Below are positions 3,461 to 50,121 of a stretch of 55,468 bases of DNA, piece after piece. This DNA is from a virus (taxonomy: Duplodnaviria > Caudoviricetes). The notes below the pieces were generated by a model. It was not told the DNA's origin. It worked only from the letters and a program-made list of their open reading frames with translations, and did not search any database. Location: positions 1 through 55,468 of IMG/VR virus record IMGVR_UViG_3300028027_000070; one strand, 5' to 3'. The position numbers and the translations under genes are program-made. Each line of letters opens with the position of its first letter. Position 1 is the first letter of the stretch.

Positions 3461-4009
3461 ATGTTATTAAATCCGAAAGGTAATAGTTTTTATTTTGTTT
3501 TTCCTAGGGGATTCTTTCCCCCTCCTGTTGTGGATAAATATCTACCATATATTAAAAAACAACCAATCCCGTTTGATAATATAAACGACTATATGAATAG
3601 TACAATCCAAACCATTGGATTCCCTAGTATGAATATAGATTCAGTTGAACAAATTAGAAATCTTGGTAAAAAAATATCATATAAAAGTTCAACACCGGTC
3701 CAGGATTTATTTAGTCAGGATTTTACTGTTGGATTTAAGAATGTTGATGGCTTTGTGAATTATTTCATAATGCTTGATACAATATTGCATTTTTTGAATT
3801 TTAAAAATCCTCAATTACATCTACAGGATCTTCCATTGAGAATTATGGATAATGAGGGAAATATAGTGATGTCAGTTACATTCCAGGGAACAATATTGAC
3901 TTCATATTCTGAATTACAGCTTAGCTATGCCTCAAACGCAAATCAATTTACACCATTTACTCTTGGATTCAAATGTAACTATATCGATATAGTTCTGGAA
4001 GCAAAGTAG
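3461..4009 (+). CDS. Tail tube-fold protein (T4 gp3 tail completion / gp19-like)
   Basis: LRIMDNEGNIVMSVTF...LTSYSELQLSY...FTLGFKCNYIDI pattern typical of gp3/gp19/gp54; 182 aa. Confidence 0.6.
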   Translation: MLLNPKGNSFYFVFPRGFFPPPVVDKYLPYIKKQPIPFDNINDYMNSTIQTIGFPSMNIDSVEQIRNLGKKISYKSSTPVQDLFSQDFTVGFKNVDGFVNYFIMLDTILHFLNFKNPQLHLQDLPLRIMDNEGNIVMSVTFQGTILTSYSELQLSYASNANQFTPFTLGFKCNYIDIVLEAK

Positions 4010-4036: not shown

Positions 4037-4273
4037 ATGAAAACATTCTCAAATTTAAAAGAGGTAAACGAAGCAAAATATGGACAACCGCTATACAGTG
4101 AAAAAGATCATATGAAAAATCTATTAATTGCTGCTTGTGGTAACGATAGAAGAGTTTTAGATGATATTGTAGATTGTCTTAGTGAAGAGCAGGTTAAGTC
4201 ATGCTTTAGTAAACTAGCTAAGGTTTATGGAACAACAGGTTCGGTTGGACAAAAACAGGATATTAACCAGTAA
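4037..4273 (+). CDS. Small hypothetical protein with CTS-like N-terminus
   Basis: Starts MKTFSNLKEVNE; preceded by GATATATA. Confidence 0.7.
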   Translation: MKTFSNLKEVNEAKYGQPLYSEKDHMKNLLIAACGNDRRVLDDIVDCLSEEQVKSCFSKLAKVYGTTGSVGQKQDINQ

Positions 4274-9592: not shown

Positions 9593-9629
9593 TTTATATT
9601 AAGGATATATAGAAAAACATTTTCGACTA

Positions 9630-10181
9630 ATGACAATAAAATCTTTTGATGAATTTAATAATTCCAAAATTCAGGAATCCTATCGCAATTCTGACTATCT
9701 TGAAGCAGAGGGTAAAACTTCATTCTCAAGATGGCTTAGAAGAATAGGAAATAATATAGGTATCGGAGACGGTGGATATAGTAGCTATTATGCAGATGTT
9801 GATCCTAATATGTCAACCATAAAGAGTGCTTCTAGTGTTATAGGTTTAGCAGTTAAGGGACTTACTAAAGGAACTGCTGCTTTTATAGATTTTCTTTCAC
9901 CCGGGGAAGAGACTAAATCATGGAAGGACCTTGATAAAGAGGAGATAAAGAGAAGAAAAGAGGAGATAATCAAAAAGTGGGAAGCTGAGCATATAGAAAA
10001 TAGAAAAGTTACCGATGGTGATGCTGAGGAATTTTATAAATCCGGCGTTCTTAGAGGTAAAAAATACTTCGGTGATGATTTTACCCCACAGAATCCTAAA
10101 GATAAAGAACAGGAAATTTATAGAGATTACCTTAAAGATATAATGGGTACTTACTATAAAAAAACAAGAAAGAGAGCATAA
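9630..10181 (+). CDS. Hypothetical protein with CTS-like N-terminus
   Basis: Starts MTIKSFDEFNNSKIQE; GATATATA at 9604. Confidence 0.7.
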   Translation: MTIKSFDEFNNSKIQESYRNSDYLEAEGKTSFSRWLRRIGNNIGIGDGGYSSYYADVDPNMSTIKSASSVIGLAVKGLTKGTAAFIDFLSPGEETKSWKDLDKEEIKRRKEEIIKKWEAEHIENRKVTDGDAEEFYKSGVLRGKKYFGDDFTPQNPKDKEQEIYRDYLKDIMGTYYKKTRKRA

Positions 10182-11113
10182 TGGGTAACGGTATCCTTAA
10201 TTTTTCTAATTTTAAGGCCTTGTTTGAAGGAGGAGCTGCAATAAAAACATCTAGACGAATACGAGAGGATGAATTTCCAGGAACGTTATTATCTATAAAG
10301 GAAAAGCTTTTTCCGCTGCTTGGTATAGATCAATCAAAAATCAATGATCAATATGTGATCATAGGAAGTATAGGAAAAAAAGAAAATCCTGATGATACCT
10401 CCGGTGATCTTGATATTGGTTACGATGCTAAATGGTATTCAGATACTAATGGTATAACAAAGAAGGAATGCTCTGGATTTATATACGATAAGATAAGAAA
10501 TGATCTTGGCGATATTATAGGATTCCAACCTGAAATAAATTATCTGAAGGGACTTAATATAGTTAGTATTGGTTGGCCGATAGATGGTAATATAGATAAG
10601 GGTATAGTTCAGCTTGATCTTATACCTCTATCAGATATGAAATGGGCAGATTTTATATACTATTCACCAAATTATAAAATAGGTGAAAGTAAATATAAAT
10701 CCGCTCATAGAAATTGGCTATTAGCAGCCATATTATCTTCGAGAAAGGAAATAATGGAAATTGATGATGCAGGCGAAGTATTAGATTATAATACACCAGT
10801 CCTTATTTTAAGCGATGGTTTATACTGGCATACAAAATCATACAGGGGAAAAATCAAAGATAGATTAAAAAATCCTAAAAAAATAGAAGGAAGTGAGAGA
10901 TTCGTTACTAACGATCCTCAGGAATTTGTTAATTTTGCTTTAGGTCCTGGATATAATATAGACGATGTTAAAACCTTTGAACAACTGTTTTCTGTAATAA
11001 TGTCGCCAGATTTCGAATTAAAGGATAAGTTACCGGAAATAAAGGAAAGATTTTTGGAATTTTTGCAAAGAGTTGGACTAGAAATACCTACTGAGATTAA
11101 TAGAATACAATAA
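10181..11113 (+). CDS. Pol-beta superfamily nucleotidyltransferase
   Basis: hGS...DxD motif (IGSIGKK...SGDLDIG) and third Asp in VQLDL; CTS-like start ILNFSNFKALFE. Confidence 0.7.
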   Translation: MGNGILNFSNFKALFEGGAAIKTSRRIREDEFPGTLLSIKEKLFPLLGIDQSKINDQYVIIGSIGKKENPDDTSGDLDIGYDAKWYSDTNGITKKECSGFIYDKIRNDLGDIIGFQPEINYLKGLNIVSIGWPIDGNIDKGIVQLDLIPLSDMKWADFIYYSPNYKIGESKYKSAHRNWLLAAILSSRKEIMEIDDAGEVLDYNTPVLILSDGLYWHTKSYRGKIKDRLKNPKKIEGSERFVTNDPQEFVNFALGPGYNIDDVKTFEQLFSVIMSPDFELKDKLPEIKERFLEFLQRVGLEIPTEINRIQ

Positions 11114-11135
11114 TAAACATTAAAAAAAGCTACTT

Positions 11136-13178
11136 ATGGCAGGAATTAGTCATTTATATGATATTTATAACAAAAAAGGTAAAGATTTTATTGATAATCT
11201 CTTTAACTCCTATGTGACCATCAATGAAAAAATGGATGGCTCCGCTTTTGTTTTTGAGAGAGATCCTGAAACTGGTAGATTTAATTTTTATAAAAGAGAT
11301 CAAAGATATCCAATAACTCTTGTTGATCGTACTCTTATGAAATATTACGAAAAACCGATAAATTATATAGAGTCACTCCCACCACATATTCTTAATGAAA
11401 TACCTAGAGGCTGGAGATTTGGTCTTGAGTATTTTTCAAACAATCAACCGGTGGAGATTGCTTATGATAGATTACCTAAGAATAATCTAATATTATCATA
11501 TATTCATACAAAGAACGAAAACGGAAAACCTTCATCAACAATACAGGATCAGGAACAGTTAAATAATTGGGCGGATCTTCTTGGTGTTGAAAGACCACCT
11601 ATAGTATTCCAGGGCATGCTAACGGATGACCAGAAAAATCAAATATTGGATTTTCTAAGAACACCATTCGATCAGCTAGTTGCTGAGTATAAGACAAAGA
11701 GCTTTGTTAGGTACATAATAGGTGTTCTTAATCCTTCCTCAAAAACAAGTGCACTTAATAATGACCTTGATAAGCCGATAGAAGGAATAGTTTTTAGATT
11801 TGGCGAAGAGGATAATGGTAAGGAACCAATATTATCCAAAATGGTTGATCCGGTTTTTACTGAGATGGCCAAGGAGAAATATAGTAAAAGATCAGAGGAA
11901 AAACCTAGTGATTTTCTGGGTCTAACTATAATGGATATAATGAATTATATCCTCGAGGAGGGTGTTGAGTCATTTAACGTTGCTGGTGATAGTGACGATG
12001 AAAGATATATCTCCTTCATGTCCGACGTTTTTGTTAAATTCCTTGGAGAATATGCATATAAATATAGAGGTGCTGATTTTCAGGAACCTGATTATTTAAA
12101 GAAGGACGAGTTCAGATTGAATCTGGACATGATAAAGGATAAAAGAGTACTTAAGTATTTGGATACTGATGATTCTTATGAATCCCTTTTTAAGCTTATG
12201 CTTAACTCGTTTAGAAAAATAAGAAAAAGAGCTAGTGGAATAATAACTGCTGGTATAATAGATCAATTTAATATAGTAGTAAGTGATATAGAGAGTGTTG
12301 TTGCCAAGGAGATTAAGCCAGCTATACAAGAATCTGAATCTATTCCATCTTTCATGGATTTTAAGAAAAGTAATATATCATCAAAGAAAATAGATTATGT
12401 TACAGCTGAATCTGAAAATTCGGAGGACGACTCTGACGAGGATGTTGATGATCCATTCTATTCATATAATGAATTTATATCAACACTAGAAACTATAGAT
12501 ACCACAAAGAAAGATAAGACAAAGGAAATAAAGGAGGATGCTTCTGAGGACGTAAAGAAATTAGAGCCTGTTAATTTATTAGTTGGTAGATTTCAGCCTT
12601 TCCATAATGGACATCTTAAGATGGTTGATCAATTATATAAGGAAAATGATCTTCCTAGCATAATAGCTGTTGTCCATCCTGGACATAACAAATCTGGTAA
12701 ATCCCCATATGATGAAAAATTAATATCGAGATATATGGAAGGAATAGTTAGAGATAATCCAGGTAAAATAGCTGGTTATTTTATAGTTAATCGTGGATTA
12801 CTTGGTCCTATTTATGGAAAGGCTAAGGAATATGGATTTCTCCCTAAGATGATAGGTGCTGGCGATGATAGAATAGAGGATTATAATAAGCAAGCTGAAT
12901 ATCTTAAGAAAGCAGGTGGAGATTTTCCTGAGGATATAAAAATAACTCAAACTAAGAGATCTTCCAGTGGAAGTGACGTTAGAAAAAAAATAGATTCTGA
13001 AGACTATACCGGATTTAAAAAACTCGTACCACAAGCGGTTGCAAATGTTTATAATTCATTAATAGATTCACAGAGAGGAACAGGTATTAAAGAGGAGGAA
13101 GATCCTACTTTTTCCGATTCTGATCTTATAACAGAATCTGAAAATTTTCAGAATATAGAAAAAAATAATCAAGAATAG
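11136..13178 (+). CDS. RNA/DNA-ligase-like adenylation domain fused to an HxGH (cytidylyltransferase/NMNAT-like) domain
   Basis: N-terminal NEKMDGS (motif I), EGIVF and SKMV. C-terminal GRFQPFHNGH, GAGDDR and SSGSDVR. Acidic linker between them. Confidence 0.75.
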   Translation: MAGISHLYDIYNKKGKDFIDNLFNSYVTINEKMDGSAFVFERDPETGRFNFYKRDQRYPITLVDRTLMKYYEKPINYIESLPPHILNEIPRGWRFGLEYFSNNQPVEIAYDRLPKNNLILSYIHTKNENGKPSSTIQDQEQLNNWADLLGVERPPIVFQGMLTDDQKNQILDFLRTPFDQLVAEYKTKSFVRYIIGVLNPSSKTSALNNDLDKPIEGIVFRFGEEDNGKEPILSKMVDPVFTEMAKEKYSKRSEEKPSDFLGLTIMDIMNYILEEGVESFNVAGDSDDERYISFMSDVFVKFLGEYAYKYRGADFQEPDYLKKDEFRLNLDMIKDKRVLKYLDTDDSYESLFKLMLNSFRKIRKRASGIITAGIIDQFNIVVSDIESVVAKEIKPAIQESESIPSFMDFKKSNISSKKIDYVTAESENSEDDSDEDVDDPFYSYNEFISTLETIDTTKKDKTKEIKEDASEDVKKLEPVNLLVGRFQPFHNGHLKMVDQLYKENDLPSIIAVVHPGHNKSGKSPYDEKLISRYMEGIVRDNPGKIAGYFIVNRGLLGPIYGKAKEYGFLPKMIGAGDDRIEDYNKQAEYLKKAGGDFPEDIKITQTKRSSSGSDVRKKIDSEDYTGFKKLVPQAVANVYNSLIDSQRGTGIKEEEDPTFSDSDLITESENFQNIEKNNQE

Positions 13179-13179
13179 A

Positions 13180-13725
13180 ATGAAAAAGTTTATTGAATCA
13201 TTTGAACAGTTTACTAATCCAGTAAATGAAAATGACGGATTTGGAACTTCACCCTTTTTAATGAAGAAAGTTAGTGATGTTTATCATTATTTCTTCACTT
13301 TGGATAGCGAGGACGAGGAAGAAGAAATGGGATACCATCTTATAATAGGGAAGTATTCTGAGAATGAAGCTATAGAGGGAGCCAAAAATTCATATTGTGT
13401 ACTTAATATAAATCAAATAGGACACGAGCTTATAGAAGATATAGCTATTAATAAAGAGGATATTCCATCTCCTGATGATAGTAAATTTCTTCTTGATGGT
13501 GGTGAACTTTCCCGTTTGATGGAATACATATTCAAATGTGTGCTCGATTATCTTTCTCTTAATCCAAAGGTTATAAGAATATATGATGAGCTCCAGGACA
13601 ATCTTGAATATAAAGGAAAGGGTGAATATATAGAATATATGAAGTCTATTTGTATATCAGAGCTTGGTAAAAATTGGGCGGTTCAAAACGGTACAGATGA
13701 AAAATCATTAATTATAAGCAGATAA
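13180..13725 (+). CDS. Hypothetical protein with CTS-like N-terminus
   Basis: Starts MKKFIESFEQFTNPVNE. Confidence 0.7.
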   Translation: MKKFIESFEQFTNPVNENDGFGTSPFLMKKVSDVYHYFFTLDSEDEEEEMGYHLIIGKYSENEAIEGAKNSYCVLNINQIGHELIEDIAINKEDIPSPDDSKFLLDGGELSRLMEYIFKCVLDYLSLNPKVIRIYDELQDNLEYKGKGEYIEYMKSICISELGKNWAVQNGTDEKSLIISR

Positions 13726-15822: not shown

Positions 15823-16290
15823 ATGTTTTACCCAACTGGAAATAGTACAAACGGAAGAAAATTAGTTTGTATTGATGACGAAAGAAAAAATATTGATTCC
15901 TATCTTGATGAATGCAATTGCGACGAGTCATGCAATTGTGTAGAAAATTGGTTGAATCAAAATGACTATTGTGTCGAGAAATGGCAATTGAGAAATTATC
16001 TAAAGGGAGAAGAATCTAGTGTTAGTAAAATCGATGAGGATATGGACGGTGGAGCAGCCCCAGCCCCTGGACTTTCCACACTAGGAAATGTTGGCGGAAT
16101 GGGAAATCCAGTTGCACCTACTAATGACGGAACAAATTCCGGATTCTATGATACTACAAAGACTGGTAGCGGCGATAAATTCACTACGCTGAGTGCTGGA
16201 ACTAATGCTGCTAATAAAAAAGGCAGGAGTAGAAAGAAGATGATCTCATACAAGGAATTTGTCCAAAAAAATAGGAAGAAAAAGAAATAA
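15823..16290 (+). CDS. Hypothetical protein (Gly-rich, C-terminal CTS-like motif)
   Basis: Ends KKMISYKEFVQKNRKKKK; followed by a terminator. Confidence 0.65.
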   Translation: MFYPTGNSTNGRKLVCIDDERKNIDSYLDECNCDESCNCVENWLNQNDYCVEKWQLRNYLKGEESSVSKIDEDMDGGAAPAPGLSTLGNVGGMGNPVAPTNDGTNSGFYDTTKTGSGDKFTTLSAGTNAANKKGRSRKKMISYKEFVQKNRKKKK

Positions 16291-16291
16291 T

Positions 16292-16318
16292 AAATCACCC
16301 AATCGGGTGATTTTTTTT
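16292..16318 (+). terminator. Intrinsic terminator
   Basis: AAATCACCC-AATC-GGGTGATTT stem plus T run. Confidence 0.8.
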
Positions 16319-28627: not shown

Positions 28628-28660
28628 TTTTTTAATCCCGAATAAATATTTTATATTTGC
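28628..28660 (+). promoter_or_regulatory. Putative early promoter for host sigma (Bacteroidota -7 element TAnnTTTG)
   Basis: T-run...CG-N11-TATATTTGC; same architecture at 37755, 41298 and 50095, variant at 16335. Confidence 0.7.
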
Positions 28661-28672
28661 ATAAAAAATAAC

Positions 28673-37715: not shown

Positions 37716-37780
37716 AATTTTCATAAATAATTTTTTTAATCCGCATGATATTCATATATTTGCGACATAATTAAAGACAA

Positions 37781-38882: not shown

Positions 38883-39345
38883 GGGCCAACATGGTATTGA
38901 TTGGCAGAGTTCGTTCTTTGAGATGCAGGCAGAGTTAGTATTGGAAACTCTTAAATAACCTATACAAAGCTTTAAACGGCAAAAACAATGTTTGGGATGC
39001 TATCAACGCGTTTGGTGCTCCCGCAGCTAAGGCTGAGTACGCAGTAGCGGCTTAACCGACCTGGTCTCACTTACCAAGGAAAGTAAATGTGAAAAATCCG
39101 GGTGGCTCCCTCAAGACTTTGGTCGTCGTCAAGGCGTACCTTGAGCATCCAGATCCTGGAGATCTATACAGGGGGCGAAAGAAAAATCCTTAGTGCCAGG
39201 ATAAATAATATCACTGAGTTGGTTGATTGTTCGGAACTCTGTTAACTGAACAATATATTTCGCTTTGTTAGAAAATGAAGCTAAGCCTGTGAATGAGTCC
39301 TTTGGCTATCTGAACAAGACGAGGGTTCGAATCCCTCTTGGTCCA
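38883..39345 (+). ncRNA. ssrA: tmRNA
   Basis: Acceptor stem GGGCCAA/TTGGTCC+A with G3.U70 Ala determinant; T arm GAGGG-TTCGAAT-CCCTC; tag ORF 38978-39055 GKNNVWDAINAFGAPAAKAEYAVAA*; CCA not encoded. Confidence 0.92.
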
Positions 39346-39351
39346 CGCGGA

Positions 39352-39402: not shown

Positions 39403-40071
39403 ATGATAGACAATAGAAAATATCATTATATTTACAAAACTGTAAATATCATAAATTCTAATTTTTATATAGGTTTGCATTCAACCAATAATATTAATGA
39501 TGGATATATGGGATCTGGAGATAGAATAAGAAGCTCTATCAGACATTACGGAAAGGATAACCATACCTTCGAAATATTGGAATTTTTAGATTCTAGAGAT
39601 CTTCTTTTAAGTAGAGAGAGGGAGATAGTAAATAGAGATTTATTAAAAAATCCATTATGTTTGAATATTATGGAGGGAGGTTATGGATTTCTTGACGAGG
39701 AGCACATGAAAAAAGTTAGCAAAGCTGGTAATGATGCTTTCAGAGAGAAATTAAAGGATCCTAATTACATGGAGGACTTTTTATTAAAATGTGATTCCAA
39801 GGGAAAGGCAGAAAATATGCACAGAATCCACATCGAAAGAGGATTCGATTTTGGTACATTTAGAAATAAAAAGCATACAACTGAAACTATTTCTAAAATG
39901 AAGGAATCAAAATCCGGAAAGGGATTAGGAAATGAAAACTCACAGTTTGGTACATGTTGGATTAATAGTGTTGAAATTGGTGATAAAAAAATTAGAAAAG
40001 AAGATCTTGAATTCTATTTGGAATCAGGATGGAAAAAAGGAAGAATTAAAAAATTAACTAAATTAAATTAA
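39403..40071 (+). mobile_element. Free-standing GIY-YIG (Seg-like) homing endonuclease with NUMOD3 motif
   Basis: YIYKTVN...FYIGLH, YMGSG and KKHTTETISKMKES motifs. Confidence 0.85.
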
Positions 40072-41273: not shown

Positions 41274-41325
41274 TTTTTTTATCTCGTAATATTGTGATAT
41301 ATTTGCATAACTAAAATATAAAAAG

Positions 41326-50031: not shown

Positions 50032-50121
50032 GTGGAACATAATTGTTATTTTAAATATGATATCTGATTATTTTTTTTAATCGAATTTTTATATTATATT
50101 TGCATTTTAAAAAGATTAACT

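Follow-up and report, generated by a model that had tools for sequence, protein, structure and literature searches.

The 55,468-base viral contig from IMG/VR analyzed here (the window; about 33% G+C, 20% complete by CheckV estimate) carries four tightly packed genes, g1 to g4, behind a putative late promoter. On the basis of conserved motifs and predicted folds, we assign with high confidence g2 to the Pol-beta superfamily of nucleotidyltransferases, and g3 to a fusion of an RNA ligase-like domain with a HIGH-superfamily domain resembling nicotinamide mononucleotide (NMN) adenylyltransferase (NMNAT). The products of g1, g2 and g4 begin with a leader peptide that resembles the capsid targeting sequence (CTS) of phage T4. 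We propose that the unit encodes injected cargo for RNA repair and for replenishing nicotinamide adenine dinucleotide (NAD+), expressed under a late promoter, and we put the probability of this whole chain at roughly 0.45. Packaging, cleavage and injection, together with all substrates and activities, are what we infer from the features described below.

A search with g3 as query gave 79 related loci; the viral contigs that carry them include some of 430-434 kb. The phage is T4-like, with a genome of roughly 430 kb. Two relatives with direct terminal repeats were rated complete, G001 (434,509 bp) and G002 (430,120 bp); G001 was examined across its entire genome (644 open reading frames, ORFs). 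The features of the unit in the window are as follows (pLDDT, predicted local distance difference test).

9603-9612, +: putative late promoter motif GGATATATAG, 18 nt before the g1 ATG
9630-10181, +: g1, 183 aa, ORF without family match, CTS-like leader at residues 1-16
10181-11113, +: g2, 310 aa, predicted Pol-beta superfamily nucleotidyltransferase (conservation, model), leader at residues 1-16
10364-10369, 10406-10414 and 10616-10618, +: g2 motifs G62 S63, D76-L-D78 and D146
11136-13178, +: g3, 680 aa, predicted ligase-HIGH fusion
11136-12314, +: g3 residues 1-393, predicted Rnl2-like adenylyltransferase domain with helical C-domain (Pfam, Foldseek)
11226-11240, +: g3 motif I EKMDG, with K32 at 11229-11231
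12315-12554, +: g3 residues 394-473, acidic linker, predicted disordered (pLDDT, composition)
12345-12365, +: g3 linker motif 1, PSFMDFK, residues 404-410
12456-12500, +: g3 linker motif 2, FYSYNEFISTLETID, residues 441-455
12555-13079, +: g3 residues 474-648, predicted HIGH-superfamily NMNAT-like domain (GRFQPFHNGH at 12585-12614; SGSDVR ends at R616)
13080-13178, +: g3 residues 649-680, acidic C-terminal tail, predicted disordered and variable
13180-13725, +: g4, 181 aa, no family match, CTS-like leader at residues 1-17, ending VNE before NDGFG

The intergenic spacings g1/g2, g2/g3 and g3/g4 are -1, 22 and 1 nt. No strong terminator-like site was found within the unit, where only weak hairpins occur (10715-10730); the next strong hairpin beyond it lies at 16292-16313. 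A scan with the sigma-70 consensus was uninformative (39 sites vs 44 expected). The GGATATATAG motif is present upstream of g1 in all 28 distinct orthologous variants, and the g1 leader is likewise kept in 28 of 28. In G001, 73 ORFs carry the motif as GATATATA no more than 70 nt upstream. Nine large ORFs of this set were compared with PHROGs; four fell into structural families and five had no match at 1e-5. The four are tail sheath (E 4e-118), portal (E 3.5e-55), head closure (E 2.8e-8) and a gp21-family prohead protease (PHROG head maturation protease, E 1.2e-39; PF03420, E 8.8e-10), and directly downstream of the protease gene comes that of the gp23-family major capsid protein (MCP; PF07068, E 1.7e-41), in a region outside the window. 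Since GATATATA precedes the tail sheath, portal and protease/MCP genes, the GATATATA/GGATATATAG motif is very likely a late promoter, judged by homology of the downstream genes.

The N-terminal leaders are MTIKSFDEFNNSKIQE in g1, MGNGILNFSNFKALFE in g2 and MKKFIESFEQFTNPVNE in g4. We searched G001 for the pattern M-x(2-8)-[FY]xx[FYW]-x(0-5)-E and found it in 66 of the 644 ORFs (about 10%), against 2.7% expected from the within-protein rate. The leader was associated with GATATATA no more than 45 nt upstream (counts 26/43/40/535, odds ratio 8.1, p 4e-11), and several leader genes lacking a promoter of their own sit just downstream of a promoter-bearing one, like g2 and g4. Both the excess over expectation and the promoter association indicate that the pattern is not due to chance. 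With the first aromatic residue as the point of alignment, the leaders give the consensus MKxIKxFxxF(I/L)NE, in which F(0), F(+3), I/L(+4) and E(+6) are conserved; among the 66 leaders, F/Y at 0 and F/Y/W at +3 occur in all, I/L/V at +4 in 26 and E at +6 in 31. In T4, the N-terminus of IPII and IPIII is MKTYQEFIAE and that of IPI is MKTFKEF. In the IPIII leader, positions 4 and 7 are the main determinants of targeting, and positions 8 and 10 determine processing (PMC9026906, in its available part). The conserved positions match Y4, F7, I8 and E10 and therefore equal the four T4 CTS determinants. Two aromatics three apart, followed by I/L and E, are found in g1, g2 and g4 and not in g3; the head system that such a leader would need, a gp21-family protease with a gp23-family capsid protein, is encoded in G001. 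Diverse anti-defence proteins with the CTS as their sole common part are described for T-even internal proteins in the accessible portion of PMC3012670. Because the clade has the gp21/gp23 head system and the determinants match, a CTS is the best reading of the leader, and we regard it on balance as probable from these sequence comparisons.

Leaders of this kind also occur beyond the unit. In the window, the same CTS-like leader begins the ORFs at 4037, 14476, 15165, 16740(-), 17714(-), 23587, 26207, 35260 and 49533, and GATATATA sites lie ahead of leader ORFs at 4009, 14464, 18026(-), 26182, 35233 and 49507. The many leader ORFs may represent a greatly expanded internal-protein repertoire. 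Two loci of distant phages hold tandem arrays of 7-8 genes (L193:2865-10248 and L196:2185-7915), of which almost every one begins MK(N/P/H)I(P/K/Q)x[FY]xx[FY](I/V)NE; most of the array products have no Pfam family, and they resemble the hypervariable internal-protein loci of T-even phages. Leader-like motifs were also seen at C-termini, in the window at 15823-16290 (ISYKEFVQKN...) and in L116:7266-7649 (LKFIKTFNEFKTEYK). A C-terminal propeptide has also been reported for T4 Alt (PMC9026906, available part).

g2 had no sequence match in Pfam (E<=1), PHROG, NCBIfam or PDB. An exhaustive profile-free search at E<=1e-3 gathered 514 clusters (50% identity), which makes g2 the founding case of a large phage family of Pol-beta nucleotidyltransferases without a curated or Pfam model. 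All 60 members that were aligned have G62, and S63, D76, D78 and D146 are each at least 90% conserved; G62 S63, D76xD78 and D146 therefore form a Pol-beta nucleotidyltransferase signature (hG[GS], [DE]x[DE], third carboxylate). The structure of g2 was predicted with a pLDDT of 94.9. Below the best Foldseek match to a solved structure, which is considered later, weak matches were obtained to TUT7, GLD-2, MenT3, PAP and Pol beta, all Pol-beta nucleotidyltransferases; on the model, the best structural neighbours of g2 are thus, weakly, RNA 3'-end nucleotidyltransferases or their relatives. Distant members of the family begin with the leader (e.g., MKTFKQF..EGG). Among viral models (BFVD), the top match came from Agrobacterium phage Atu_ph07 (490 kb), an uncharacterised protein (E 2e-18) encoded in an unannotated gene array. 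This g2-like gene (L198, 44.9-53.1 kb) stands within a run of about ten hypothetical genes of 250-360 aa, which may be paralogues.

RlaP, which adds one or two nucleoside monophosphates to RNA 3' ends (PMC12776372, in the part available), was considered as an identity for g2 and rejected: PF10127 gave no match in g2, nor in G000, G001 or G002 at E<=1. The RlaP-style neighbourhood of an RNA ligase beside a nucleotidyltransferase is nevertheless found, as g2 adjoins g3 in 67 of the 79 loci. With PF10127 absent and an RNA ligase neighbour present, g2 would be RlaP-like by context and yet not a member of that family.

The N-terminal half of g3 matched Pfam RNA_ligase (PF09414) at residues 26-225 (E 4.7e-5), and Foldseek placed its predicted domain with T4 Rnl2 (2hvr_A, E 2.6e-7; 1s68, E 3.7e-5). 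Ligase motifs I (K32, in E31-K32-M-D34-G35), III (E98), IV (E216-G217) and V (K235) are present; K32 and E98 align with EKIHG and FGEF of T4 Rnl2, in an hhalign comparison that was not significant (E 0.07). DUF6267 was examined as another relative of the ligase half and set aside: hhalign gave nothing (E 0.14), and PF19782 (DUF6267) had no match in G000 or G001, a search that was silent in all control genomes too. The C-terminal half matched CTP_transf_like (PF01467) at residues 481-523 (E 2.4e-5) and contains the HIGH motifs G484-R-F-Q-P-F-H490-N-G-H493 and SGSDVR. By sequence, residues 480-642 matched archaeal NMNAT in PDB (E 2e-3), with R485, H490, H493, K522 and R616 aligned to NMNAT R11, H16, H19, R47 and R136. 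By Foldseek, the best match of the C-terminal domain was archaeal NMNAT 1hyb (E 9e-6; template modeling score, TM, 0.72, or 0.70-0.74 by target), followed by NadD, NadM and PPAT.

In the g3 model (mean pLDDT 76), residues 1-393 and 474-648 each fold into a domain, and the tail is disordered. The linker between the two domains (394-473) contains 23 D/E in 80 residues and has a pLDDT below 50, with short helices at 406-413 and 442-453. It carries a conserved (I/V)xE-S at 397-400, and E399, F406, F409 and F447 are invariant among 21 orthologues of 40-91% identity. The fusion is kept in all complete g3 orthologues (631-694 aa). Processing of g3 as a polyprotein is a conjecture.

The gene order helicase-g1-g2-g3-g4 and the genes downstream are conserved in nearly all of the 79 loci. 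The four genes therefore belong to the collinear backbone of the clade, and in this clade they are not a free-standing mobile module. We then compared seven distant g2 loci (34-44% identity) with their neighbours within 7 kb. A HIGH gene lies no more than 7 kb from g2 in six of the seven, and a g3-type ligase is also present in two. In L189, g2 is followed by a fused ligase-HIGH gene; L192 has a stand-alone HIGH gene (197 aa), g2, a stand-alone ligase gene (429 aa) and a second HIGH gene; in L193-L196 a stand-alone HIGH gene precedes g2 by 1.5-3 kb, the 7-kb range being free of ligase genes; and in L197 g2 is alone. Like the g2 relatives of distant phages, the stand-alone HIGH proteins begin with the leader (MIHIKLFEQF, MLKFKEFV, MKKFKEFV, MKNIPTFEDF), and the stand-alone ligase carries FKTFKDY and KLNEFI motifs at its C-terminus. 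Since the ligase C-terminus and the HIGH N-terminus carry such peptides when unfused, the internal motifs of g3 correspond to the terminal peptides of the separate proteins. Longer combinations were also found: an 1802-aa protein (g2-like, KxDG region, HIGH, g2-like, Nudix, g2-like), a 1636-aa protein (HIGH, CCA-adding enzyme, DUF5661, P-loop kinase, HD, g2-like) and a 1056-aa protein (HIGH and g2-like). Whether polyproteins or merged gene calls, they represent a conserved neighbourhood.

A second leader-bearing protein, with EGGxYGHLxHPF and EKxDG, was repeatedly noticed beside HIGH, g2 and ligase genes of distant phages (L116:3704-4969; L193:2865-4178; L192:5225-6397). It belongs to no Pfam family and may be another ligase-like enzyme. 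The KxDG proteins adjoining g2 in L193, L192 and LR756500 had no Pfam match.

In the 67 loci with g2, EKxDG is intact in all and HxGH is intact wherever the sequence reaches it. Three lineages make up the 12 loci that have no g2 nearby; the ligase or HIGH motifs are degenerate in 10 of these 12 and in none of the 67. Seven g2-less loci have ENLDG, with the motif III E changed to A/V and the motif IV EG to DS, and the six complete ones among them also have NNGH; four keep the ligase motifs, with DNLD replacing HNGH in the three complete ones; and one (L024) has intact motifs. LR756500 combines ENLDG with TLGH, and LR756502 has a ligase-only gene with EDVQG. This pattern of motif decay fits a dependence of g3 chemistry on g2.

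The architecture drawn by a first-pass annotation of this DNA has thus held up. It had described a tightly packed four-gene unit behind one late-type promoter, which agrees with the ORF spacings and with the motif ahead of structural genes in G001; CTS-like motifs on all four products, which prove to be N-terminal in g1, g2 and g4 and an internal pair in g3; a GS/DxD/D Pol-beta nucleotidyltransferase, whose catalytic set is conserved in the 60 relatives; and a KxDG ligase joined to a GRFQPFHNGH domain through an acidic linker with two internal motifs, as borne out by Pfam, Foldseek and composition.

In favour of RNA repair as the role of the set are the structural neighbours of g2, the ligase of Rnl2 type, the precedent of RlaP for repair by a nucleotidyltransferase and a ligase (PMC12776372 and PMC7824862, available parts), and the proteins that join these enzymes to CCA-adding, kinase and HD domains. 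NAD+ synthesis is supported by the NMNAT-like motifs and fold and by NadV, which is encoded in both G001 and G002, where g3 is the only PF01467 domain in each. In the surveys covered by the available part of PMC9503650, NadM-containing phages always have NadV. From sequence and models, we would give even odds to an RNA repair activity, and the same to an NMNAT activity. KptA/Tpt1, considered as a reason for a local NAD+ supply, was searched for and was absent. Elsewhere G001 encodes two canonical PF09414 ligases, a CCA-adding enzyme, P-loop kinases and 31 tRNA genes. Given these ligases, the CCA-adding enzyme and the kinases, the late set is an additional kit, which fits a version made for delivery and fits redundancy too.

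We envisage the following course. g1, g2 and g4 would be loaded onto the prohead core through their N-terminal T4-type CTS, while g3, with internal motifs alone, may ride along or be cut in the linker. The gp21-type protease would trim after (I/L/V)xE of the leader, and the products would be injected with the DNA to act in the new host ahead of any phage gene expression. There, g2 may add nucleotides to damaged RNA 3' ends in an RlaP-like manner, the Rnl2-like domain of g3 may reseal broken RNA such as nuclease-cut tRNA, and its NMNAT-like domain may make NAD+ from ATP and from NMN supplied by phage NadV, which would counter NAD+-depleting defences. Injection had been suggested in the first-pass annotation and gains support from the leader, which equals the T4 CTS determinants, and from the gp21-type protease and gp23-type capsid; packaging itself we infer. 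Among the functions offered there, RNA repair and NAD metabolism are supported by context (the domain fusions; NadV with g3 as sole HIGH domain), and signal-nucleotide metabolism and protein nucleotidylation found no support.

Several observations weigh against this proposal. The ligase half of g3 scores below the Pfam cut-off (24.0 bits against 27), as does the G001 orthologue (25.5 against 27). NMNAT models rank first for the HIGH half in NCBIfam, at scores well short of theirs (PRK01153, 34 against 127 bits; TIGR01527, 27 against 181), and only the generic TIGR00125 passes its cut-off (29.8 against 27.7). The best Foldseek match of g2 to a solved structure is weak (CutA, E 8e-3, TM ~0.26). 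g3 has no N-terminal leader, only the two internal motifs, and its first residues are part of the ligase fold. The motif I lysine is lost in deeper relatives (ENLDG in 7 of the 79 loci and in LR756500, EDVQG in LR756502), so that the domain can persist without ligase chemistry. The link between decay and g2 comes from three lineages, in which g2 counts as absent when missing within ~6 kb and may be elsewhere in the genome. Because leader genes cluster in arrays, the adjacency of g2 and HIGH genes may reflect shared regulation and not a pathway. Finally, RNA repair by the late set may be redundant in G001, and some phages carry NadV alone (PMC7824862, available part).

The same enzymes could also remain unpackaged, with the leader acting as another tag or assembly peptide and the set serving late in-cell upkeep of tRNA and NAD+ during virion production. 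The missing leader of g3 would suit this explanation, as would leader-like motifs at internal positions and C-termini and the share of leader-bearing ORFs, about 10% being many for head cargo. It is, however, unlikely in our view, since four leader positions equal the T4 CTS determinants in a clade with a gp21/gp23 head system, and the arrays, in which diverse genes have leaders that are almost identical, are reminiscent of the internal-protein loci of T-even phages (as described in the accessible portion of PMC3012670). Packaged proteins might instead be mainly structural internal head proteins whose enzyme motifs are vestigial, as several lineages lose catalytic motifs yet keep the proteins. 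Against this, all motifs are intact in the window lineage and in 67 of the 79 loci over 50-96% sequence divergence, and the g2 catalytic residues stay at least 90% conserved in 60 distant relatives; of the four alternatives weighed here, we hold this one to be the least probable.

Two further alternatives concern the chemistry. The HIGH domain might be an RNA-directed adenylyltransferase giving 5'-adenylylated RNA (AppRNA) that is sealed by the fused ligase, and not an NAD+ synthase. This would explain why lineages that lack the ligase lysine have not lost the fusion, which all complete orthologues retain; the K32N lineages retain NNGH and R/K485, the HIGH domain is fused with CCA-adding, kinase and HD RNA-repair domains, and KptA, a consumer of NAD+ in repair, was not found. 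The nearest sequence and fold matches are nevertheless NMNATs, NadV is present with no other HIGH domain, and the K32N lineages also lose the motif III E and the motif IV EG, which indicates general decay. We also know of no reported HIGH enzyme with an AppRNA-making activity, although no search aimed at one was made, and consider this explanation improbable. Marginally less probable again is an offensive set, in which injected g2 would nucleotidylate host tRNA or other RNA 3' ends, or proteins, in a shutdown like that by MenT toxins. g2 has MenT3 as one of its weak structural neighbours, and injected T4 Alt modifies host proteins (PMC9026906, available part); the best neighbours of g2, however, are terminal RNA nucleotidyltransferases and not MenT, and g2 is repeatedly linked to ligase, CCA-adding and kinase domains, with no antitoxin-like partner seen. 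An injected kit for RNA repair and NAD+ replenishment remains the reading that we prefer.

For g1 and g4, no family was found in Pfam, PHROGs or NCBIfam, and there was no Atlas lead; g4 has 107 homologues, none named and none with a Pfam domain. On an 11-kb contig (L021:6001-8565), the g3 frame continues without a stop into g4 (855 aa), which could be a true fusion or an assembly error. Compared with the window, L004-L006, L008, L015, L021, L029 and L077 show an interruption of the helicase upstream of g1 or of the gene next to it, or a shift of 1-2 kb in its position; an inserted mobile gene may be responsible.

Promoter-like TAnnTTTG motifs (TATATTTGCA) are present in both the window and G001. 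We take TAnnTTTG to be a Bacteroidota promoter type; the motifs are probably host-type early promoters and therefore suggest the host, which is probably a member of Bacteroidota. In the window, they lie at 28640-28672, 37750-37780, 41290-41325 and 50090-50121, upstream of genes without the late motif, and G001 has 28 forward copies and 1 reverse copy. No tRNA genes were detected in the window, where an ARAGORN scan gave neither tRNA nor transfer-messenger RNA (tmRNA); Rfam RF00023 matched a phage tmRNA gene at 38883-39348 (+; 48.3 bits, gathering score 47, E 4e-16), after which comes a GIY-YIG-like ORF at 39403-40071.

Two things stand out here, the g2 family, which has no curated model, and the ligase-HIGH fusion; neither a ligase-NMNAT fusion nor an expanded CTS in huge phages was found in the literature searched, supplementary tables excluded. 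Both g2 and the fusion can readily be tested at the bench. If the leader works as in T4, it provides a rule by which the injected proteins of uncultured huge phages can be recognised directly in metagenome sequences. If our proposal is true, RNA-repair and NAD+-salvage enzymes are delivered pre-made, without prior expression, and the expected timing of counter-defence changes. A wider version is rather doubtful: that a widespread group of huge T4-like phages has expanded the CTS into a general delivery route, with dozens of tagged proteins per genome injected, among them a recurrent three-enzyme kit (the new Pol-beta nucleotidyltransferase family, the NMNAT-like HIGH enzyme and the Rnl2-like ligase) that occurs as separate genes, as a fusion or within giant polyproteins, which the prohead protease would cut at leader-like sites, and that would pre-empt tRNA-cleaving and NAD+-depleting immunity from the very start of infection.

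The unit can be compared with several known systems. Like the polyvalent proteins of phages (Iyer et al. 2017, PMC5512222, available part), g3 unites unrelated enzyme domains in a single chain for which packaging and injection are proposed; a hub domain of the MuF, portal or metallopeptidase type, however, was not seen in it, and the ligase-HIGH combination is not reported in that part of the source. With RlaP (PF10127), g2 shares a Pol-beta nucleotidyltransferase encoded beside an RNA ligase, and it differs in its C-terminal half, its leader peptide and the lack of a Pfam model. The ligase half of g3 resembles T4 RNA ligase 2 (RnlB, PF09414) in its adenylyltransferase fold followed by a C-terminal domain, in motif I near the N-terminus (EKMDG vs EKIHG), in the motif III glutamate and in motifs IV and V. 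In contrast to that enzyme, it is fused to a HIGH nucleotidyltransferase, lies in a late operon, has lost the lysine in some lineages and, being divergent, adds a third ligase to the two canonical ones of the genome.

The HIGH half shares with archaeal NMNAT/NadM the motifs GRFQPFHxGH and S-x-x-V-R and five catalytic positions, and relatives of the phage encode the usual partner NadV. It differs in being fused to an RNA ligase, without a Nudix or kinase partner domain, and its stand-alone relatives carry a CTS-like leader. Phages can also reconstitute NAD+ with Nampt and Nmnat, presumably the route named pathway 2. The phages studied here are alike in having NadV and a single NMNAT-like domain in the genome; they differ from the route as given in the available part of its source (10.1101/2024.02.11.579819) in that the two genes are ~290 kb apart and the NMNAT-like domain is predicted to be late-expressed and is fused to a ligase.

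The closest parallel for the leader is with the T4 internal proteins IPI-III, which have an aromatic, an aromatic, I/L and E at the spacing of Y4, F7, I8 and E10, late expression, a gp21-type protease, and diverse cargo with the leader alone in common (PMC3012670, accessible portion). The leader described here differs in being typically three residues longer at the N-terminus and in being carried by ~10% of ORFs vs a handful in T4. Enzymes of 180-570 aa are part of the cargo, and the motifs also occur internally and at C-termini.

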